64,000 bases of DNA from an uncultured Cryomorphaceae bacterium. GTDB lineage: Bacteria; Bacteroidota; Bacteroidia; Flavobacteriales_D; Cryomorphaceae. Position numbers and translations under genes: made by a program. The DNA is taken from NCBI GenBank assembly GCA_964574635.1, contig CAZNOG010000009.1:26220-90219 (forward strand), given 5' to 3'. Below the pieces are notes generated by a model. The model saw nothing but the letters and a program-made list of their open reading frames with translations. It did no database searches and was not told where the DNA came from. Shown here in pieces: positions 7,389-50,941 of the stretch. Each line of letters opens with the position of its first letter. Positions within the stretch are counted from its first letter, which is position 1.

Positions 7389-8777
7389 ATGAAATACGAT
7401 GTCATCGTTTTGGGCAGTGGCCCCGGTGGATATGTAGCCGCCATACGTTCTAGCCAATTGGGATTCAAAACCGCCGTTGTAGAGCGGGAAAATTTGGGCG
7501 GCATCTGCCTGAATTGGGGTTGCATCCCCACCAAAGCCTTGTTGAAGAGCGCCAACGTTTTTGAGTACATCTCCCATTCGGAGGATTACGGCATCTCGCT
7601 CAACAACCCCAAAGCCGACTTTTCGGGCATGATCAAGCGCAGCCGCGATGTGGCCGCCGGCATGAACAAAGGCGTGGAGTTTTTGATGAAGAAGAACAAA
7701 ATCGACGTGATCTTCGGAGAGGGCAAGGTGAAGGCCGGTCGCAAGATCGACGTGACGGACAAAGACGGCAAGACCACCACCTACGAGGGAAAGCACATCA
7801 TCATCTCGACCGGTGCCCGAGCAAAGGAACTCCCCAACATCAAGATCGACGGCGAAAAAATCATCGAATACCGCAAGGCGATGTCGCTGGAGAAACAGCC
7901 GAAGAAGATGGTGGTGATGGGCAGCGGCGCCATCGGAAGTGAATTCGCGTATTTCTACAACGCCATCGGCACGGAAGTGACCATCGTGGAGTACCTCGAC
8001 AACGTGGTGCCCCGGGAAGACGAAGAAGTGTCGAAGCAATTGGGCCGTTCTTTCAAGAAAGCCGGCATCAAGGTGATGACCTCCGCATCCGTGGAGAGCG
8101 TGGATACTTCCGGCAGTGGGTGCAAGGTGAAAGTGAAGACCAAGAAAGGCGAAGAAACCATCGAGTGCGACGTGGTACTCAGCGCCGTGGGCGTGACACC
8201 AAATACGGAAAACATCGGCTTGGAAGAAGTGGGCATCAAAACCGAAAAAGGCTATGTGAAGGTCGACGAATTTTACCGCACCAACGTAGAGGGTTATTAC
8301 GCCATCGGCGATTGCGTACCGGGTCCCGCATTGGCGCACGTGGCGAGTGCCGAGGGCATCACCTGTGTTGAGAAAATCAAAGGCATGGAAGTGGAAGCCA
8401 TCGACTACGGCAACATTCCCAACTGTACGTATTGCTCGCCCGAGGTGGCCAGCGTGGGCATGACCGAAGACCAAGCCAAGGAAGCCGGTTACGAACTGAA
8501 AGTGGGCAAATTCCCGTTTTCAGCTTCGGGCAAAGCCAAGGCGGCGGGCCACAGCGACGGGTTCGTAAAACTGGTTTTTGACGCCAAATACGGTGAACTT
8601 CTGGGCGGGCACATGATCGGGTCCAACGTTACCGAAATGGTGGCCGAACTGGTGTCCATCCGAAAGTTGGAAACCACCGGCCACGAAATCATCAAGACCA
8701 TCCACCCCCACCCCACCATGAGCGAAGCCATCATGGAAGCGGCCGCCGCGGCGTACGGGGAGGTGATTCATATTTGA
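7389..8777 (+). CDS. lpdA: dihydrolipoyl dehydrogenase
   Basis: 462 aa with a GxGxxG FAD motif (VLGSGPGGY) and the redox disulfide GGICLNWGCIPTK. The long antisense ORF at 7311-8474 is discounted. Confidence 0.95.
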   Translation: MKYDVIVLGSGPGGYVAAIRSSQLGFKTAVVERENLGGICLNWGCIPTKALLKSANVFEYISHSEDYGISLNNPKADFSGMIKRSRDVAAGMNKGVEFLMKKNKIDVIFGEGKVKAGRKIDVTDKDGKTTTYEGKHIIISTGARAKELPNIKIDGEKIIEYRKAMSLEKQPKKMVVMGSGAIGSEFAYFYNAIGTEVTIVEYLDNVVPREDEEVSKQLGRSFKKAGIKVMTSASVESVDTSGSGCKVKVKTKKGEETIECDVVLSAVGVTPNTENIGLEEVGIKTEKGYVKVDEFYRTNVEGYYAIGDCVPGPALAHVASAEGITCVEKIKGMEVEAIDYGNIPNCTYCSPEVASVGMTEDQAKEAGYELKVGKFPFSASGKAKAAGHSDGFVKLVFDAKYGELLGGHMIGSNVTEMVAELVSIRKLETTGHEIIKTIHPHPTMSEAIMEAAAAAYGEVIHI

Positions 8778-8779
8778 GA
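8497..8779 (+). repeat. perfect direct repeat, copy 1 (lpdA 3' end)
   Basis: Identical by eye to 11505-11787, at an offset of 3,008 nt. Confidence 0.9.
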
Positions 8780-8899: not shown

Positions 8900-10855
8900 T
8901 CATCTGTTCACCACGAATTTTTCCGTGGCGTTTCTTTCTCCCGAAATTGCGGTAAAAATGTACATCCCTGGGTTCAGCATCGAAACGTCTATTGGCGATC
9001 GGGCGTTCAGGCCGCCCTCAAGCACTACCCGTCCTGACAAATCAAATATGCGGAATGCGGCAGGACTTTGGTCGATGTTGGAAACATACAGTATTCCGGC
9101 GCTTGGGTTGGGGTACAGCCGAAAAGTTGTCCGTTCGGTCCGATCATTCGTGGAAGTAAAAATCTCCGGCGCGGAATAGAACGCAAAAAAACCGCTTCGG
9201 GCATTGGACGGCGTGGTAAAAGGCTCCGAATCCCCGAAGGGATCCAAGGTGGTGGTGACATTCCTCCCAATGGATCCTTGGATCAAGAGGGTGTCGCCTT
9301 GATAGGGGAGGATGGCATTGATGTCGATTATGTCAAAATCTACCGGGCTTTCATACGGAATGATCCAATGGTCGAGTATGGAAAGGTCGGTATCCAGCCA
9401 CAGGACATACACCCCTTTGCCCGCCGGAAATTCGATGAATGTATCTTCCGTGGATCCATCGAATCCGGTAAATTCATATCCCAAAACCGTATCATTCGCC
9501 GCCGCATAATGGAGAACCCAAGCCAATTTACCTTCGATTTCAAAGATTCCGGATTCTTTTGAAGGTCTGCCTGATATGCCCGAAACCTTTGACGCGACAC
9601 GCAATTTGCCAATCACATTCCCATTCAAATCCACTTTATACAACGTTGAATGGTACATTGGGACTTGGTACATTCCGCCGGCTAAATCATAATACGGTTC
9701 GTTGCTGTTATACAATTGTGTGTTGTAAAAACAATCGCGGAAAATCAAGGTGTCATCGACGTTTGCTTGGGTGAAAAGCTCTCCGCTCAAAAAAACACTT
9801 TCCGCTGTTTCCAGGATGGAAAAAAACAGGTTTTGAACCCGAAACTTATTCGAGCCCCAGAGTACGGTGTCCGCTTGGGTATTGTTGTACGCGTACAGCT
9901 CGGTGAGCCACTCTGTGGCTCCGGAAGCACTTTCTTTGGTAATGAATACGTGCAACAAGGAATCATTGTCAGGCATGGGTATCTCGGCGCCGGATACACT
10001 TATGGGTGTATTGTTTCCCCGCACCAACCCAATGCGATAAAGTCCGTCTTCTTGGGCTCTCTCCACCCTGAAATTTACCAGACTGCCGTTCTCGGATCCA
10101 ATTTGCTCACTGACCATTTCTTGTGTTTGCAAATTCAATTCTGTTCTCACAAATTGGGCTTGTCCTCCGGCGGCGGTGAATTCTTCGGTGGAGTTCAGTG
10201 TTTGGTTCTTGTTCAGTGTAAAGTACGACACCACCAGACTGTCACCTATCACCGCTGAGGCATTTTGGGCTTTAAAATTTCGATTCGGATTGCCGTATAC
10301 CATTTCAAAAAAACCTGAGAAAGGTGTATAAGATGAAAAGTTCCCAAACGGTGCGGAAAAATCTATCAAACCGACGGCAGTATGCGTTGGAGGGTCATAT
10401 GAAATAATGCCGGTTTGACTCAGGAAGTCCGCGGGATAATTTTGGACCGGCGGCCAGCCGCGTATTCCGGTAGTGCTGACTGTGTGATCGCTTACTGAAA
10501 GTTCGATGATCAATTTTTGATCGCTGAGCGGGTAAATATTTGGATCGGAAAACGGAGTGAAAAGGTAAGTGTTTCCTGGGATCAAGTTTTCGTCGTACAC
10601 CACAATGGCATTCGTATAAACCGTGTCGCCCGCGACTGTTGGCTGAATATTGTCTTCCCAAATCCCCGTATTGATCATTTGGGTATTCATGATTTGTGAC
10701 CAGTTGTAGGCCGCAACATACCCCTCTCCATCCGCAAGGGGTATGAATTGGTTAGACGACTCAAGATGTACCGATCTATGGATAAGGGCATTGGCTTGGG
10801 TCAAACCTTCGTGGGAAATCCATAACATTGAGAAAATCAAAATCCATTTATGCAT
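8900..10855 (-). CDS. T9SS type A sorting-domain protein (secreted, function unknown)
   Basis: 651 aa with an N-terminal signal peptide. The C-terminus RLYPNPSAGILYV...FDLSGRVV...LNPGMYIF...KFVVNR is a Por/T9SS CTD. The gene is AT-richer than its neighbours. Confidence 0.8.
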   Translation of the reverse strand: MHKWILIFSMLWISHEGLTQANALIHRSVHLESSNQFIPLADGEGYVAAYNWSQIMNTQMINTGIWEDNIQPTVAGDTVYTNAIVVYDENLIPGNTYLFTPFSDPNIYPLSDQKLIIELSVSDHTVSTTGIRGWPPVQNYPADFLSQTGIISYDPPTHTAVGLIDFSAPFGNFSSYTPFSGFFEMVYGNPNRNFKAQNASAVIGDSLVVSYFTLNKNQTLNSTEEFTAAGGQAQFVRTELNLQTQEMVSEQIGSENGSLVNFRVERAQEDGLYRIGLVRGNNTPISVSGAEIPMPDNDSLLHVFITKESASGATEWLTELYAYNNTQADTVLWGSNKFRVQNLFFSILETAESVFLSGELFTQANVDDTLIFRDCFYNTQLYNSNEPYYDLAGGMYQVPMYHSTLYKVDLNGNVIGKLRVASKVSGISGRPSKESGIFEIEGKLAWVLHYAAANDTVLGYEFTGFDGSTEDTFIEFPAGKGVYVLWLDTDLSILDHWIIPYESPVDFDIIDINAILPYQGDTLLIQGSIGRNVTTTLDPFGDSEPFTTPSNARSGFFAFYSAPEIFTSTNDRTERTTFRLYPNPSAGILYVSNIDQSPAAFRIFDLSGRVVLEGGLNARSPIDVSMLNPGMYIFTAISGERNATEKFVVNR

Positions 10856-11247: not shown

Positions 11248-11392
11248 CCGGTTTTGCGATCCCTTATTTTAGGCCAAACGCTTTTAAAATGGGAAATGAA
11301 AATGTTTTCATAATGTCTTGGTTAGGTTGGATTTCACCAAATGTATTGAAAACGATACACTTTACGAAATTGTATGAAGTGACCCTCGTGGA

Positions 11393-11785
11393 ATGGAAGT
11401 GGAAGCCATCGACTATGGCAACATTCCCAATTGCACTTATTGCTCACCCGAAGTGGCGAGCGTGGGCATGACGGAAGCGCAAGCCCAAGAAGCCGGTTAT
11501 GAATTGAAAGTGGGCAAATTCCCGTTTTCAGCTTCGGGCAAAGCCAAGGCGGCGGGCCACAGCGACGGGTTCGTAAAACTGGTTTTTGACGCCAAATACG
11601 GTGAACTTCTGGGCGGGCACATGATCGGGTCCAACGTTACCGAAATGGTGGCCGAACTGGTGTCCATCCGAAAGTTGGAAACCACCGGCCACGAAATCAT
11701 CAAGACCATCCACCCCCACCCCACCATGAGCGAAGCCATCATGGAAGCGGCCGCCGCGGCGTACGGGGAGGTGATTCATATTTGA
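11393..11785 (+). pseudogene. orphan duplicate of the lpdA 3' end (last 130 codons)
   Basis: The 130-aa ORF matches the lpdA C-terminus except for D->A and K->Q. There is no 5' part of the gene, and the homology starts at 11391-11393. Confidence 0.9.
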
Positions 11786-11787
11786 GT
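11505..11787 (+). repeat. perfect direct repeat, copy 2
   Basis: Identical to 8497-8779. Confidence 0.9.
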
Positions 11788-12012: not shown

Positions 12013-12552
12013 TCATTGCACCACGAATTTTTCCCCGAAGTATCCTTCCCCCGTTGCGGTAAAGATATACATCCCCGGGTTCAGTCTCGAAATATCCAGC
12101 GGCGAGCCGGCCACCAAATGGCCCTCGAGCATTATGCGGCCGGACAAATCAAAAATACGGTATGCCGCATGTTTGTCGCGCAGGCCGGATGCGTATAGTT
12201 TTCCCGAGCTTGGATTGGGGTACAATCCAAAGGAATTCTTTTGGGTCTGCACTTGCATGGAAGTGAGGATGTCGGGCGCGGAGAAAAATGCAAAAAATCC
12301 GCTTCGGAAGTTCGACGGTGTGGTAAAGGGCTCCGAATCTCCAAAGGGATCCAATGTGGCGGAGGTACCCCTGCCCAAGGACCCCTGAATCAGCAAAGTA
12401 TCGCCCCCGAACGGAAGTATTGAATTGATGTCTATGACGTCGAAATCATCGAGGCTTTCATACGGAATCAACCAATGATCCATGATGGAAAGGTCGGTAC
12501 ACCCACAAAAACCCAAACCCTCACACCCTTCCCGTGTATGTGGTTCCGCCAC
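12013..12552 (-). pseudogene. 5'-truncated paralog of the 8900-10855 T9SS protein (C-terminal ~175 aa only)
   Basis: DHWLIPYES..DFDVIDINSILP..GDTLLIQGSLGR...DPFGDSEPFTTPSN.RSGFFAF plus a CTD aligns to the C-terminus of the 651-aa protein. Homology ends at ~12497, so there is no signal peptide. Confidence 0.75.
12499..12514 (+). repeat. dispersed motif ACACCCACAAAAACCC, copy 1
   Basis: Exact 16-mer located at the truncation junction of the T9SS paralog. About 30 nt of extended similarity to the copy at 28175. Confidence 0.8.
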
Positions 12553-12570: not shown

Positions 12571-15000
12571 TTAGGGTTTTTCGGCGTGTTTCACGTACTT
12601 CTCCAGCCATTGGTCTTGCTCCCACAACACGTGAAACACACTTTCCTTTGCGCTGTAGCCGTGGCTTTCCTTGGGCAGCATAACCAAACGCGCTGTGGCG
12701 CCAAGTCCTTTCAACGCGTTGAAATAGCGCTCGCTCTGCATGGGATAGGTGCCTGAATTATTGTCGTCGGCACCGTGGATCAACAGCAGGGGCGCGTTCA
12801 TTTTGTGCGCGTTCATGAAGGGCGACATGGTATTGTACACCTCGGGCGCTTCCCAATAATTGCGTTCTTCACTCTGGAACCCAAAGGGTGTGAGAGTGCG
12901 GTTGTAGGCTCCGCTGCGCGCGATACCGGCGGCGAATAAATCGGAATGCGACAGCAAATTGGCCACCATGAAAGCTCCGTAGGAATGTCCGCCCACGCCC
13001 ACCCGGTTTCGATCGATATAACCCATGGCATCCACGGCGTCGATGGCGGCTTGGGCATTGGCCACCAATTGGGATACGAAACTGTCGTTGGGCTCGGTAT
13101 CCCCCTCGCCGACGATGGGGAAATCCGCATTGTCGAGTACCAAGTAACCACGAGTGACCCAGTAAATCGGTGATCCGTAGTGCGGGTAAATAAAGCGGTT
13201 GGGATTGGTGGTGCTTTGACCTGCGCTGCTCTTGCTCTTGAATTCCCGGGGATAAGCCCATAAGATCATCGGCAGTTTTTCCTTCTTCCGCATATCGTAA
13301 CCCACGGGGAGATACAACGTGGCTTCCAAGTCCAATCCATCGGCGCGTTTGTATTTGATCACTTCTTTGTGAACGTCTTGAATGCTCTTGAAGGGATTGT
13401 CGAAATAGGTGATCTGCGAGAGTTGGTTTTCCTCATCGATGTTTCGGAAGTAGTAGTTGGGGTACTCCGTGGGGGATTCAATGCGCACCAATACTTTTCC
13501 ATTGGGAATATCACTGCCCGAAGAATAAATGCTTTCGACTTTGTCGGTGTAGGGAGATTGGTAAATCCGGGAAGTTTCCAAGGTGTTCATGTTCATCTTG
13601 TCGATAAAGGGAAACTGCCCCTCGGGGGTAAAGCCCGAGCCGATCAGGAAAGCGTCCTCACCATCGAGTTCCAAAACCTGCTGATCGTATTGGTTTCTCG
13701 TCGTCACGAAACTTCCGGGATCTCCGTAACGGTCTTCGTAATTCCGGTCGAAAACGAGTACGGCGTCTTCATCGGGATTGCCCGGGTTGAACCGGTAGGT
13801 CTTGGTGTTGCGCGTATTCCACCAATAATCCGTGCCAAGCGCCAGGGAGTCCGTCCCCCAGGTGATGCCCGAAAATCGGTTGATGGTCTTGAAAAGCAGG
13901 TTTGGTTCTCCCGAAAAAGGTGCCTCCTGCTGATAAACGGCGTCGCGGTATTCCACCTCCTTTTCAGGATCGCCGCCGTCCAGTGCCTCAGTCCAAAACA
14001 AGGTGGCCGGTTTGTCGTTGCGCCACTCCAAGTTTCTTTTGCCCATGCGCGTAGCCATGAAACCTTGGGGTCGCACCTCGTCCAAGGGAACTTCGTTGAC
14101 GCGTGCAACGAACTCGCCGGTAGCGGAATACACGTCTTTGGCAAAAGGAAATCGATGATGCGTAACCAAATAAGAGAAAGGTTTTTGGAGGGTTTCCACC
14201 AAGAGGTATTCTCCGTCGGGGGAGAAGGAGAGCGCATCATACATTGCCGGCGGGAGAAACGGGGTGGCGTTTCCGTCCAAGTCCAATTTGTATATTTCAG
14301 ACCGCACCAATTGCTCGAAATTGAATTCGTCATTGGCGTCTTTCAACAAATCTTGGTAGGTGCGATTTTGCGCTTTCATTCCGTCGCTGACGGAAACCGT
14401 GGGGCCCGTAGGGACGGCTTCCGAATTGTTTATCAGCTCCCGACGATCCTGTGGAACGGACTTGACCAACAGGCCTTCACTGTCTCTGAACCAAGTCAGT
14501 GCACTGCCGATATTGGCATTCACGGCAAGGTCGCCCAACTTCTTGGCCCGGGCGGTTTCTATTTCCACGAGCCAGACTTCCGATTTTTCCGAGTCCGTAT
14601 TCAGAAAAGCCAAATATTTTTCGTCCGAAGAGCGGGTGAAATTGGAAAACCGTCCCGTTAGCGGAAGGCCGGAAACCTGTCGGGGTTCTTTTTCTTGGGT
14701 GGTTTTTACTTTGATGTTGTTGTAAAATCGCGTTCTGCTGCCGATGTTGGTTTTCGGATTGATGCGCAATCCCGCCAAGCGCAATTCGGTTTCGGATAGC
14801 TCCGCGATGGATTTGAATTGATCTCGGTAAAACAGAATCACGTTTTCCCCTTTGCTGTCGATCTGAACCGATGGAGCCAAAGGCACATCCACCAATTTTC
14901 GGATGTTTTCATGCGGGGTTTGGTAGGTGGGATTCTCTTGGGCGAAAGACGTGAAGCACAAGCAAATCGCGACAACGGCAAAGATGGATTTCAAATTCAT
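12571..15000 (-). CDS. S9 family serine peptidase (prolyl oligopeptidase/dipeptidyl peptidase-like)
   Basis: Start taken at MNLKSIFAVVAICLCFTSFAQ (signal peptide). Contains the nucleophile motif GGHSYGAF and an N-terminal beta-propeller-like region. The upstream 60 codons of the ORF lie inside the repeat array. Confidence 0.9.
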   Translation of the reverse strand: MNLKSIFAVVAICLCFTSFAQENPTYQTPHENIRKLVDVPLAPSVQIDSKGENVILFYRDQFKSIAELSETELRLAGLRINPKTNIGSRTRFYNNIKVKTTQEKEPRQVSGLPLTGRFSNFTRSSDEKYLAFLNTDSEKSEVWLVEIETARAKKLGDLAVNANIGSALTWFRDSEGLLVKSVPQDRRELINNSEAVPTGPTVSVSDGMKAQNRTYQDLLKDANDEFNFEQLVRSEIYKLDLDGNATPFLPPAMYDALSFSPDGEYLLVETLQKPFSYLVTHHRFPFAKDVYSATGEFVARVNEVPLDEVRPQGFMATRMGKRNLEWRNDKPATLFWTEALDGGDPEKEVEYRDAVYQQEAPFSGEPNLLFKTINRFSGITWGTDSLALGTDYWWNTRNTKTYRFNPGNPDEDAVLVFDRNYEDRYGDPGSFVTTRNQYDQQVLELDGEDAFLIGSGFTPEGQFPFIDKMNMNTLETSRIYQSPYTDKVESIYSSGSDIPNGKVLVRIESPTEYPNYYFRNIDEENQLSQITYFDNPFKSIQDVHKEVIKYKRADGLDLEATLYLPVGYDMRKKEKLPMILWAYPREFKSKSSAGQSTTNPNRFIYPHYGSPIYWVTRGYLVLDNADFPIVGEGDTEPNDSFVSQLVANAQAAIDAVDAMGYIDRNRVGVGGHSYGAFMVANLLSHSDLFAAGIARSGAYNRTLTPFGFQSEERNYWEAPEVYNTMSPFMNAHKMNAPLLLIHGADDNNSGTYPMQSERYFNALKGLGATARLVMLPKESHGYSAKESVFHVLWEQDQWLEKYVKHAEKP

Positions 15001-15328
15001 CAAAATGGGTTTGGGCCAAAGATATCCAAAAGGGAGAAAGGGGGGCGGTGATCGGGATTTAGTGATATCCGGATAAGTGACTCCAAGGCGACTTAAATCG
15101 GAACAAATAGTAAATCTAACTGAAGGGACCGGGGATCGAGAGGTGCTGTGTTCCGGATAGGTGACTTGGAGGCGACTCAAACTGGATTAAGGTTGGGGTC
15201 GAACTGAAGGGATCGGGGATCGGTGATCGGGCTTGGCTGTTTTCCGGACATGTGACTTCGAGACGACTCAGATCAGGTCAAATAGTGAATCTTACCGGAG
15301 GGACCGGTGATCGAGAGGTGCTTTTTTA

Positions 15329-15473
15329 CGGATAGGTGACTTCGATGCGACTCAAATCGGATTAAGGTTGGGGTCGAACTGAAGGGATCGGGGATCGGTG
15401 ATCGGGCTTGGCTGTTTTCCGGACATGTGACTTCGAGGCGACTCAAATCGGATAAGAAATCTGATTGATCGGC
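15329..15473 (+). repeat. ~145-nt direct repeat, copy 1
   Basis: Near-identical to 15749-15893. The two copies flank a 275-nt unique segment. Confidence 0.85.
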
Positions 15474-15748
15474 ATCTGACCCCGGACGTACACCCCACCT
15501 CGCGCGTCATTCCGAACTTGTTTCGGAATCTCTTTGTCGCAAGAAAGCCAACTTACATGGATTAGGTTCGAGGCGAGTCAAATTGGATTTAGAATTACAT
15601 GGACGTGCAGAACGACCATACGCCGTTTTTAACCACATAGGTTACATAGGAAGGCAGGGCGTGTAGGAAAGCCAGGCGGCATAGCGCGTCTTTGACGCAA
15701 CACAGAGGGATCGGGGATCGGTGATCGGTGATCGAGATGTGCATTTTT

Positions 15749-15893
15749 CCGGATAGGTGACTTCGAGGCGACTTAAATCGGATTAAGGTTGGGGTCGAAC
15801 TGAAGGGATCGGGGATCGGTGATCGGGCTTGGCTGTTTTCCGGACATGTGACTTCGAGGCGACTCAAATCGGATAAGAAATCTGATTGATCGG
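15749..15893 (+). repeat. ~145-nt direct repeat, copy 2
   Basis: Near-identical to 15329-15473 and abuts the IS256 remnant. Confidence 0.85.
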
Positions 15894-16268
15894 GGAGTGT
15901 TCAATCAACTGTGTCATCTGTTAAAAAGCGTCCTTCGAAGTATCGGTGAAGGTCCCTTCTGATGGATTTCCACCCAAATATCCTTCCGTTCCACTTGGAT
16001 TTGGCATTGACGGTAGCCAAATATATCTGTTTCAGGATCGCGGTCTCGGAATTGAACGCCCCTTTCGTCTTGGTCACCTTACGTACCATCCGATGATAGC
16101 TTTCTATGGGGTTGGTGGTGTAAATCAGCCTTCGCAGTGCCGGCGGGTATTTGTAGAAGTTCGTCAGCCTTTCCCAGTTGTGGTTCCAGCTCTTGAACAC
16201 CACCTTGTATTTGTCGCCCCATTTCGCTTCGGCTTCCTCCAATCGGTGCCGGGCCCAAGACCGTGAGC
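15875..16268 (-). mobile_element. IS256-family (mutator-type) transposase remnant, 3' ~120 codons only
   Basis: The translation ...EAEAKWGDKYKVVFKSWNHNWERLTNFYKYPPALRRLIYTTNPIESYHRMVRKVTKTKGAFNSETAILKQIYLA... matches the conserved IS256 Tnp C-terminus (YTTNxIES, RKxTK). There is no N-terminal or DDE part. Confidence 0.75.
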
Positions 16269-16270
16269 TA

Positions 16271-16616
16271 TGTATGGTGAACACGAATCCGCAAAGGCGG
16301 GCTGGTTGAAATCCAAGTACCCGGTACCATAAATAATTCCAAAATTCCGCAATCCTACGGACAAAAAATTTGGACAATCCTTCCCACGAATTAGCATGTA
16401 ACTGTCCTCCAATCCGCCCATCCCGGCTTCGTAAAAGTAAAAGACTTCGTCGTTGCAATAAAACGTTGGTATCGTTCTGAACTCCACCCCATTGATTTTG
16501 CAGGTAAAAAGCTCTGCAAAGTGCTCTCCTTCGGGGGCGTCGTCATCGTCTTTGCAACAAGAAAGGCATGTGACGAGTGCCACGGATATCAGTAGAATAT
16601 GTTTTCTTATGCGCAT
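16271..16616 (-). pseudogene. lipoprotein paralog truncated at its 3' end by the IS256 remnant
   Basis: MRIRKHILLISVALVTCLSCCKDDDD...FADSCSPYIAHG is near-identical to the 16770-17336 gene up to 16271, then reads into IS sequence. Confidence 0.7.
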
Positions 16617-16628
16617 GGGGTCGGGGTA

Positions 16629-16769
16629 TTATTCAACGATTAACAATTTGCCTCTATGACCGGGGTCATGGGATTTCGATATCAGGTAAAAATACATGGC
16701 CGGAGGGCACAAAGGAAGAGAGCGATGAAACAATCAACTTGCTTTTGTATGGAGCGACAGCATGCGTGG
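16629..16769 (-). pseudogene. remnant of a T9SS C-terminal sorting domain (last ~45 codons)
   Basis: Hand translation ends ...LPLCPPAMYFYLISKSHDPGHRGKLLIVE*, paralogous to the C-terminus of the 17350-17721 ORF. No upstream ORF is present. Confidence 0.45.
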
Positions 16770-17336
16770 TTACCAAACATTCGGCACCTTAAACCGAAAG
16801 TAGCCATCGGTCACGTGGACCACGGAATCGAGTTCTTCGTTTGCAACGGTGAATTCAAACGTGCCCTCGATTTTGCCCAGCCTTTGGGTCACCGAATCGC
16901 GTGGAGTAAAGGTTGTGATGTTCATGCCACCGGAAATGAGACTGTCAAATAGCAGAATTCCGATGTCGGGCCCTGGGCTGTGCCTAATGTATGGTGAACA
17001 CGAATCCGCAAAGGTGGGCTGATTGAAATCCAAGTACCCGGTACCGTAAATAATTCCAAAATTCCGCAATCCTACGGATAAATGATTTGGGCAATCCACA
17101 CCACTCATAAGCATGTAACTGTCCTCCAATCCGCCCATCCCGGCTTCGTAGAAGTAAAAGACTTCGTCATTGCAATAAAACGTTGGTATCGTTCTGAATT
17201 CCACTCCATTGATTTTGCAGGTAAAAAGCTCCGCAAAGTGCTCTCCGTTGGGGGCGTCGTCATCATCGTCTTTGCAACAAGAAAGGAATGTGACGAGGGC
17301 CATGGATATCAGTAGAATATGTTTTCTAATGCGCAT
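16770..17336 (-). CDS. lipoprotein, function unknown (intact copy)
   Basis: Lipobox in LVTFLSCCKDDDDD; 188 aa from MRIRKH. It lies directly downstream of a T9SS-CTD ORF. Confidence 0.7.
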   Translation of the reverse strand: MRIRKHILLISMALVTFLSCCKDDDDDAPNGEHFAELFTCKINGVEFRTIPTFYCNDEVFYFYEAGMGGLEDSYMLMSGVDCPNHLSVGLRNFGIIYGTGYLDFNQPTFADSCSPYIRHSPGPDIGILLFDSLISGGMNITTFTPRDSVTQRLGKIEGTFEFTVANEELDSVVHVTDGYFRFKVPNVW

Positions 17337-17349
17337 TGGATCGGGGTTG

Positions 17350-17902
17350 CTATTCAACGATTAACAATTTGCCTCTATGACCGAGATCCCGGGATTTCGA
17401 AATCAGGTAAAAATACATGGCCGGAGGGAGCGGGGGCAAGGTCAATTGGGAAGAACCGGAAGCAATTTGGGCGGAAAAGCATTGTTGGCCGCGTATGTCA
17501 AAGAGAAGAAATGTATACTGATCCGTTGATTTGGCTTCATCGTCCTGTTCTATCCACACGTTCAGTTGATTTCTTGCCGGGTTGGGAGATACTTTATGGG
17601 ATCCATCCGGAGAACCGAATGAGCCGTATTGCCGAAACCAATCTCCATAGTTGAATAATGTATCTGAAGCGGTACTGCCATCAAATTCAGCCACATTCAT
17701 CATCTGAAAACCTCGATCCATACAACAGCCCGGAAGTCACTTCCGTAAAATCGAGCGGTGCCGTGATATAATCCATTTGATCATTCAGTGGCACATTTGG
17801 CTGTGCCTTCGCGCCATTGATAAAGATGATGAAAATGGCAGATAGGGTGGTGGTCGTTAAAAACCGGGTTTCTCGTCTCATAATGTGGGCATTTGACCGC
17901 AA
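17350..17902 (-). pseudogene. small T9SS-sorted protein split by a +1 frameshift near 17700-17720
   Basis: The signal-peptide ORF (17687-17902, ...LSAIFIIFINGAKAQ) and the CTD ORF (17350-17721, VSPNPARNQLNVWI...FDIRGQQ...PPAMYFYLI...GKLLIVE) overlap in different frames. Confidence 0.5.
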
Positions 17903-50530: not shown

Positions 50531-50769
50531 GTGTATTCGGAAGTAAATAACTATATCCCCAATACCCGACTTAATTGTCGGCTAATGGATTACACGCTCG
50601 GTATTGAAAATGAACTCGATCGCGTGAAGGATGGAAGCGGCATCCCTTGCGCGCGCCGCGTTTCGCGCGTACAAGGATACAGCGGACAGCCTGACCCCGC
50701 CCTGAGAGTGGAAAATACCGGGACGAACGAGACGCACCGGATAAGAAAGTAGGCCGGCGATAAAGAGGG

Positions 50770-50869: not shown

Positions 50870-50941
50870 TAGCCCGTAGGGGATTCGAACCCCTGCTACC
50901 AGGATGAAAACCTGGCGTCCTAACCCCTAGACGAACGGGCC
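50870..50941 (-). tRNA. tRNA-Glu (anticodon UUC)
   Basis: Hand-folded 72-nt cloverleaf. Acceptor GGCCCGT/ACGGGCT, D arm GTCT/GGAC, anticodon stem CCAGG/CCTGG with loop TTTTCAT, T arm AGGGG-TTCGAAT-CCCCT. No CCA is encoded. Confidence 0.9.

Follow-up and report, generated by a model that had tools for sequence, protein, structure and literature searches.

The DNA analysed here, 64,000 nt of an uncultured Cryomorphaceae bacterium (assembly GCA_964574635.1, contig CAZNOG010000009.1, positions 26,220 to 90,219 of the forward strand), is called the window, and all positions are counted in it unless a contig is named. Between the gene of an S9-family prolyl oligopeptidase and a remnant of an IS256-family insertion sequence (IS), the window carries an array of direct repeats. 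The original prediction, made from the letters alone, had the array fill the whole gap from the start of the peptidase gene (15000) to the transposase remnant. This extent was borne out, the stop codon of the remnant lying at 15901. The array is probably a lineage-specific, non-coding intergenic mosaic of repeats, the cassette-free allele of a hypervariable locus which changes by homology-driven recombination. The features of the locus are summarized in Table 1.

Table 1. Features of the repeat locus and its borders, with positions in the window
Feature	Positions	Strand	Basis
S9-family prolyl oligopeptidase gene; ATG at 15000 forms the left border of the array	12571..15000	-	Pfam Peptidase_S9, E=2e-25; exact product in Logan contig L003
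TATCTTTG, perfect match to the TAnnTTTG -7 box, 16 nt upstream of the ATG	15017..15024	-	read from the sequence
Left repeat block, five 84/91-nt units U1-U5	15040..15473	+	TRF periods 175/91, repeat families, unit table
34-nt cores of U1-U5	15069-15102, 15153-15186, 15244-15277, 15328-15361, 15419-15452	+	unit table
Heptamer microsatellite (GATCGGK)3	15211..15231	+	TRF period 7, pattern list
Other heptamer runs	15386-15406, 15709-15736 (4 copies), 15807-15827	+	TRF period 7, pattern list
Single heptamers	15050, 15134, 15309, 15888	+	pattern list
CGTC-tagged REP hairpin, CGTC + ATTCCGAA-CTTGT-TTCGGAAT + tail CTC	15505..15532	+	sequence, match of the terminator-like scan
Partial core copy GGATTAGGT-TCGAGGCGAGTCAAATTGGA	15559..15587	+	repeat search
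Segment in place of cassette B	15588..15676	+	blastn, L002 979-1076 vs 15561-15650, 82% identity
Right repeat block: small hairpin, 4-copy heptamer run, U7 and U8	15677..15894	+	repeat search, block alignment
Small hairpin GCGTC-TTT-GACGC	15686-15698	+	sequence
Cores of U7 and U8	15749-15782, 15840-15873	+	unit table
IS256-family transposase remnant, C-terminal ~115 codons (stop 15901-15903)	15895..16263	-	Pfam Transposase_mut, 288-377 of 379

Organisation of the repeat array

A scan of the whole window for the 26-nt core GTGACTTCGAGGCGACTCAAATCGGA gave six copies at up to 3 mismatches against none in 100 shuffles, and within the window the copies were confined to this locus. A looser scan revealed seven full cores, with GTGACT at 15077, 15161, 15252, 15336, 15427, 15757 and 15848. 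The repeat search gave a 70-nt unit in seven copies, whose start-to-start distances were 84, 91, 84, 91, 330 and 91 nt, and a 26-nt piece in eight copies when the partial copy is included. The core scans are in agreement with the motif of ~35 nt proposed earlier, in seven full copies and one partial copy at 84-91-nt spacing. The alternating higher-order units of ~175 nt were likewise recovered by Tandem Repeats Finder (TRF), which reported a period of 175 over 15046-15449 (2.3 copies, 86% matches) together with a period-91 array of 3.8 copies. In the left block the 175-nt unit is present ~2.3 times, and the segments between the cores are of two alternating types which are 70-100% identical to each other.

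The two blocks 15329-15473 and 15750-15894 showed 97.9% identity at an offset of 421 nt. The prediction of two near-identical blocks of ~145 nt therefore holds, with the second block one base off, and on a wider alignment 15723-15893 is a 96% copy of 15302-15472. The part between the blocks had been described as a unique segment of 275 nt containing a hairpin. The hairpin is present as the stem-loop ATTCCGAA-CTTGT-TTCGGAAT at 15509-15529; the segment as such is not unique, being made of further repeat modules, and sister strains carry two gene cassettes there. Alignment shows it to be the remainder at the site of the sister strain's two cassettes, to which a single arm of an inverted-repeat element is added. 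This arm, TTTAACCACATAGG at 15628-15641, has a single occurrence in the window and belongs to an element of ~270 bp which is complete in the metagenome contig L002.

The units abut head to tail. No duplications lie between or around them and no inverted repeats stand at their ends, unlike what defines a miniature inverted-repeat transposable element. The core is non-palindromic, and no inverted repeat was found inside the units. The core contains GTGACT and GCGACT as direct half-sites, with 11 bp from one start to the next and a more variable spacer of 5 nt between them. This pair is compatible with a protein-binding site, though among recently duplicated copies it proves nothing. A Xer/dif-like core was rejected by inspection, as the two half-sites have the same orientation instead of being inverted.

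The start of the array, though not its unit number, was independently confirmed by the short-read contig L003, which encodes an identical peptidase, matches 15001-15226 exactly and ends in the first heptamer run. The sister-strain contig L084 likewise ends in this run, which indicates that the array breaks short-read assemblies. An inverted repeat of 19 nt with 84% complementarity (15112-15130 and 15951-15969) has one arm in the array and one in the IS256 remnant, and is probably due to chance.

Regularly spaced direct repeats, and a 34-nt repeat which is within the range of clustered regularly interspaced short palindromic repeats (CRISPR), could suggest a plasmid or chromosomal iteron origin, a centromere of the sopC or parS kind, or a degenerate CRISPR. 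The sopC centromere of the F plasmid consists of 43-bp tandem repeats. The window, however, is Bacteroidota chromosomal DNA with several proteins carrying sorting domains of the type IX secretion system (T9SS), and its housekeeping genes include those for FtsH, ProRS, GatB, a DAHP_synth_1-family (KdsA-like) enzyme, RsmD and RsfS. A Pfam search with every open reading frame (ORF) of the window of at least 80 aa gave no Rep, Par or Cas family, and no recombinase or integrase except the IS256 fragment. The units of 84/91 nt also differ from iterons and centromere repeats, which are short and helically phased (~17-43 bp). The segments between the cores are homologous and of two alternating types, not unique spacers; close relatives are without the array, and no similarity to plasmids or phages was found. 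These readings are effectively refuted. The suggestion of an iteron-like or centromere-like array is thus dropped, while the earlier statement that the array is not a CRISPR stands, on the two homologous segment types and the lack of any Cas family among the ORFs searched.

Alleles of sister strains and distribution of the core

The locus was compared with metagenome and Logan contigs of sister strains, in which the S9 peptidase is ~93% identical to that of the window. Variation of unit number between strains, which the original prediction had asked to be looked for, was found on this comparison. The contig L001, from a metagenome of the Joint Genome Institute (JGI), is the allelic locus of a sister strain with ~90% nucleotide identity in the adjacent 5' end of the peptidase gene. 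L001 shares with the window the start of the peptidase gene and the first two units, after which it has 3 units where the window has 5. After the CGTC hairpin it carries a one-gene cassette of 0.5 kb which encodes a membrane protein of 109 aa; alignment with L001 and L002 revealed that this cassette is bounded by two copies of the right half of the hairpin, with 22 nt shared. The partial core is followed by cassette B (2.5 kb), which holds three co-oriented genes of unknown family. The left boundary of cassette B is a core copy homologous to 15559-15587 and its right boundary is the module of GCGTC hairpin, heptamer run and core. Both cassettes are absent from the window, and after cassette B the two alleles run together again, window 15677-15870 and L001 3691-3884 being 98% identical. 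The cassette proteins gave no match above the cut-offs in Pfam and NCBIfam.

Cassette B was present at >99% identity in six further Logan contigs from other samples. In L094 the sequence directly 3' of it is 100% identical to window 15677-15752. In L093 (2168-2331) and L095 (1769-1932) the 3' end of cassette B leads through one unit into the start sequence of cassette B, as would result either from tandem copies of the cassette or from its excision as a circle. This junction contains the core variant GAGGCGACTC, while L001 has GATGCGACTC where cassette B begins on the left. Repeats are missing around a distantly homologous cassette B found in another genome (L092). The contig L099 was without flanks.

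The contig L002 (1-1542), from the same metagenome as L001, is a second context bearing the repeat. It encodes the C-terminal end of a secreted-looking protein, a multi-pass membrane protein of 114 aa and an ORF of 67 aa which is abutted directly by a core copy. This ORF is possibly a C-terminal fragment of an XRE/RstR-type repressor, the match being to the C-terminal third of the RstR type and weak, below the cut-off (E=0.0096). Besides the complete inverted-repeat element with its TTTAACCACATAGG arms, the contig has a right end which is paralogous to the region upstream of cassette B.

When the 15 distinct instances of the core were aligned, column conservation was 80-100% over GTGACTTCGAGGCGACTCAAATCGGAT and decayed on both sides. 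A given left flank is found with more than one right flank, and a given right flank with more than one left flank; GCTTGGCTGTTTTCCGGACAT, for example, is joined to either TCAAATAG... or TAAGAAATC... The breakpoints between the alleles lie in four modules, that is the heptamer run (U3 of the window against unit 3 of L001), the core, the CGTC hairpin, and a point just 5' of GCGTC-TTT-GACGC. Four breakpoints in four modules are explained most simply by general homology-driven recombination and not by one dedicated site.

The shuffling of flanks at the core and the cassettes lying between core copies in L001 could also indicate a dedicated cassette-capture system, similar to an integron, to rAID or to a Xer module. 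The core would then be its attachment or recombination site, the recombinase would be encoded elsewhere, and the units of the window would be empty cassettes or scars. The junction in L093 and L095 is what excision of a circle, or a tandem arrangement of the cassette, would produce, and in L002 a core abuts the apparently truncated gene with the weak RstR-type match. The rAID systems of Bacteroidales consist of a tyrosine recombinase followed by an array of short, co-oriented orphan-immunity genes, between which conserved motifs recur (bioRxiv 10.1101/2025.05.03.651265). Such a system is nevertheless considered unlikely here. No recombinase other than the IS256 fragment was found among the ORFs searched; the core has no inverted repeats and the unit lacks an attC-like fold; the breakpoints are spread over four modules rather than one site; and the cassette B homologue in L092 is without repeats. 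The more specific proposal, in which the core is the site of an undescribed cassette-exchange system of an uncultured Flavobacteriia lineage, the junction in L093 and L095 is a circle and the half-sites bind a recombinase or an accessory protein, is quite improbable.

The distribution of the core in public collections was scanned with the degenerate pattern GTGACTYNNANGCGACTYAAAYYGGA. No match was obtained in 185,579 species-representative genomes and none in viral contigs, and in metagenome contigs there were two matches only, L001 and L002 from one JGI sample. The array showed no similarity to a plasmid collection of 72,556 records or to a phage collection. With no match in Rfam, in the plasmid and phage collections or in the species-representative genomes, the earlier remark that the motif fits no described element is supported. 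Two ORFs in the array were also searched as proteins. The ORF of 90 aa matched only the window's own product in a collection of 5.8 billion proteins, while that of 57 aa gave two weak matches among 1.84 billion representatives, both to giant repetitive proteins and judged irrelevant.

The closest public genome by the S9 peptidase was that of an uncultured Flavobacteriaceae assembled from a metagenome, with 82% amino-acid identity. In relatives with peptidases at most 82% identical (L004, L085, L086, L087-L090) the gene for FabH lies divergently upstream across a spacer of ~130 bp without the array. Absence of the array from these relatives points to its recent acquisition by one lineage. Synteny of L004 and L085 with the window was limited to the peptidase gene.

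The sequences beside the array border were compared with L084. Over the 223 nt next to the peptidase ATG on its upstream side, the window and this contig were 98.7% identical. The peptidase gene itself showed 86-91% over its array-proximal 5' half (13571-15000) and 94.5-99% over 12571-13570, and its third codon positions were 84% identical overall (16% differ). Downstream of the gene, the window and L084 were not homologous. The high identity of the array start is read as the result of recent island exchange, because cassette B keeps >99% identity from sample to sample and the peptidase gene is itself mosaic; the whole island may thus have been exchanged recently among strains.

Heptamer runs, hairpins and neighbouring features

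The runs of the heptamer GATCGGK which had been reported between the motifs were confirmed by TRF, with four period-7 runs of GGGATCG, and by a pattern scan with 9 matches against 0.44 expected, every one in the array. Copy number and sequence of the heptamer runs differ in L001, L002 and L093. The count of 19 GATC sites also stands, for 856 nt, while the expectation of about 3 by chance is corrected to ~4.4 from the window background of 5.2/kb, which amounts to a 4-fold enrichment. The array is the densest GATC stretch of the window, the 99th percentile of 856-nt windows being 13 sites. As 16 of the 19 sites sit in runs or single copies of the heptamer GATCGRK and are copied with it in the unit, the sites are not independent events. 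The whole window has 333 GATC sites compared to 327 +/- 16 from dinucleotide composition, and the excess at the array arises from a single heptamer microsatellite which is duplicated along with every unit. No Dam-type methylase was found among the ORFs of at least 80 aa in the window, the sole D12-like match being the 16S rRNA methylase RsmD. On these three results the Dam-type epigenetic switch suggested in the original prediction is not supported. In switches of the pap or agn43 kind, GATC sites fall within the binding sites of a promoter's regulator and are differentially methylated.

Conservation of the TATCTTTG box before the peptidase gene extends to L001, L084 and L003. We take TAnnTTTG to be the consensus of the Bacteroidota -7 promoter box, so that TATCTTTG is the likely promoter of the peptidase gene, situated between the gene and the array. 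Within the units no TAnnTTTG was seen by eye. The array lies directly upstream of this presumed promoter, and it may be a regulatory protein-binding array which, possibly with GATC methylation or heptamer slippage, tunes or phase-varies transcription of the S9 peptidase gene or the cassettes. Such a function would fit the pair of direct half-sites at 11-bp distance, the 4-fold GATC enrichment, the variation of heptamer copy number among strains and the 98.7% conservation of the promoter-proximal 223 nt. Several observations are nevertheless against it and render it decidedly improbable. Relatives at most 82% identical express the peptidase gene from a 130-bp spacer without any array, and the kilobases of genes between units in sister strains would break a phased array. 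Neither a Dam gene nor a regulator gene is nearby, the spacings of 84, 91 and 175 nt are out of helical phase, and the GATC sites are copies of one heptamer.

The hairpin between the two blocks was compared with the class of CGTC-tagged repetitive extragenic palindromic (REP) sequences, which have an unpaired CGTC tag, a stem of 8-9 bp starting with AT, a loop of 4-5 nt and a short tail of 3 nt (PMC3733652). The class has been reported in Bacteroidetes, and dRS3 of Neisseria is its CGTC-1 family (PMC3733652). The hairpin at 15505-15532 agrees with this description in its tag, its 8-bp AT stem and its 5-nt loop, with the tail CTC and not the commonest CCA. It occurs once in the window; related tagged hairpins were found nine times in 1.84 Mb of other Flavobacteriia loci against none in shuffles. 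Hairpins of the form ATYCYGAA-CTTGT-TTCRGRAT with a CGTC or TGTC tag were located in L082 (12545-12570) and at six other Flavobacteriia loci, and one such hairpin lies directly downstream of the orthologous peptidase gene in Winogradskyella echinorum.

Tandem arrays of small-RNA genes exist in bacteria, and the + strand of the array is strongly G-rich with a GC skew of up to 0.37. The units could accordingly be tandem genes or parts of a structured non-coding RNA, as a small-RNA array or a long 5' leader. This explanation is very improbable, since the fold energy of the 175-nt unit was no better than that of shuffles on either strand (z-scores of +0.3 and +1.5). The locus had no Rfam match at the gathering score, and relaxing the threshold to E up to 10 for 14900-16100 brought none either. 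A scan of the array for sigma-70-type promoters, whose model does not cover those of Bacteroidota, gave no match, the only terminator-like site was the REP hairpin, and homologues beyond one lineage were absent. The GC skew extends over 15000-15900, and the G-runs in or before the heptamer module could in principle form G-quadruplexes.

The right border of the array is formed by the IS256 remnant, which abuts the last unit exactly at a module boundary. Transposases annotated as IS256 were 50-53% identical to the remnant in tblastn. A putative terminal repeat, beginning with GGAGTGTTCAATC at 15895, suggests where the IS ends. To its right there is a direct duplication of 468 bp with 90% identity (16244-16707 and 16961-17428). 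It carries two paralogous small lipoprotein-like genes (16164-16616 and 16770-17336), both with a weak match, below the cut-off, to the Riean_0653 family; the IS256 remnant truncates the left gene copy and is fused to it. Exact-product look-ups with these two genes and with P0123 gave no match.

Downstream of the peptidase gene, 11390-11786 is a 96% copy of 8382-8778, the 3' end of a pyridine-nucleotide disulphide oxidoreductase gene (7389-8777), and yields a stand-alone Pyr_redox_dim fragment ORF at 11393-11785. It is adjoined by a 72% copy (12019-12507 against 8909-9402) of part of the neighbouring gene for a T9SS-tail protein, and the two together look like a segmental duplication. The IS256 remnant, the 468-bp duplication and the 96% copy of a gene fragment show that the surroundings are unstable, which was counted in favour of a locus changing by recombination. 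The sole Rfam matches in the window were a Flavo-1 RNA (RF01705, 52 bits, above the gathering score) at 50617-50700 on the + strand and, ~170 nt from it, a tRNA gene at 50870-50941 on the - strand.

Mode of change and comparison with known repeat arrays

The observations taken together are best accounted for by a mosaic locus built of a small set of modules, namely the GATCGGK run, a T-rich linker, the core of 27-34 nt, (CCGGAYAK)GTGACTTCGAGGCGACTCAAATCGGA, one of several short right-hand linkers, the CGTC-tagged REP and two small palindromic modules. In sister strains, gene cassettes lie between these modules. In the allele of the window they would have collapsed together and then partly re-expanded through a 175-nt tandem duplication and a duplication displaced by 421 nt. 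The array would grow, shrink and be reshuffled by unequal or ectopic homologous recombination between its own modules and by slippage of the heptamers, and recombination with DNA of related strains probably contributes. Such exchange would also swap the neighbouring cassettes and raise divergence in the adjacent end of the peptidase gene, and the IS256 insertion at the right end may have been opportunistic. The structure of the array, its variation among strains, the presence or absence of the cassettes, the shuffling of flanks and the confinement to one lineage are observed. We infer that the recombination relies on homology and is not directed by an enzyme and that, apart from being a substrate of recombination, the array serves no dedicated function which depends on its sequence.

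Four points weigh against this interpretation. The tidy half-sites GTGACT and GCGACT, 11 bp apart, look like a protein-binding site. The 98.7% conservation of the array start beside diverged codons could mean purifying selection on a sequence-specific function. The junction in L093 and L095, if it is an excised circle, could point to an enzyme-driven cassette system. The core copies, moreover, were counted in 64 kb of the genome only.

Among known systems, the best-supported comparison is with the Neisseria intergenic mosaic elements (NIMEs). By analogy, the array would work most like a NIME array, and would be functionally analogous to NIMEs and to the bacterial interspersed mosaic elements (BIMEs) of E. 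coli. Both the NIME array and the array studied here are non-coding, with a short conserved repeat separating semi-variable segments of ~50-150 bp. Repeat number is dynamic in both (5 against 3 units before the hairpin here), cassettes are present or absent and an IS has inserted; dRS3, moreover, is a relative of the hairpin at 15505-15532 within the superfamily of CGTC-tagged REPs. In Neisseria, the number of repeats in NIME arrays changes from strain to strain, IS elements are received as insertions, silent or variable gene cassettes and divergent genes lie alongside, and a role as recombination substrate has been proposed (PMC1797815). The raised divergence of their flanking genes has been measured (PMC1797815), and a divergent gene end stands beside the repeats there as it does in the peptidase gene of the window.

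The differences are also clear. The core here is a direct non-palindrome of 27-34 nt while the NIME repeat is a 20-bp inverted repeat, ATTCCC-N8-GGGAAT. A single locus is known here against hundreds in Neisseria, the phylum is Bacteroidota with a Flavobacteriia-like genome, and no phage or IS110-type recombinase is known to target the repeat. Because there is no dRS3 around each unit and only a single hairpin of the dRS3 class, the array is not a member of the NIMEs and the comparison is one of analogy only.

Likeness to the CGTC-tagged REPs is limited to one module, the 34-nt core and the 84/91-nt unit being untagged and non-palindromic. BIMEs and the mycobacterial interspersed repetitive units (MIRUs) resemble the array as strain-variable intergenic mosaics or tandem arrays. 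BIMEs and minisatellites of the MIRU type have units of 40-100 bp whose copy number varies through recombination or slippage. BIMEs consist of REPs in alternating inverted orientation and are scattered over hundreds of loci, while MIRUs are often translated within operons. Neither is tied to the gain and loss of cassettes, in contrast to this locus, and the non-palindromic core sets the array apart from BIMEs, REPs and REPINs. The short tandemly repeated repetitive (STRR) sequences of cyanobacteria are short runs of 7-nt units in intergenic DNA. The GATCGGK runs of three to five copies are similar, but differ in sequence and phylum and in being embedded as one module of a larger unit.

Integrons, clusters of attC sites lacking an integron integrase (CALIN) and rAID share with this locus cassettes which are separated by a recurring sequence, and alleles which differ in cassette content. 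No IntI-type integrase was found in the window, however, and the repeat is without an attC-like imperfect palindrome of the R''-L''/L'-R' type. From rAID the locus differs in having no tyrosine recombinase and no genes between the units of the window, so that only a conserved intergenic motif is shared. The cassette genes are, in addition, not uniformly short or co-oriented. As there is neither a recombinase nor attC-like symmetry, the array was not assigned to integrons or to rAID.

Such arrays are well documented for Neisseria and enterobacteria but, to our knowledge, not for Flavobacteriia. Public metagenome fragments show that the repeat array marks a spot where small cassettes are swapped among closely related strains and where the neighbouring gene is unusually divergent. 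The result also cautions against taking GATC-rich arrays of this type for methylation switches or origins, and it accounts for the breaks at this locus in short-read assemblies of the lineage. If an enzyme were found to recognise the core, the locus would represent a new cassette-exchange system. As it stands, the array is a candidate hotspot for strain-level variation.

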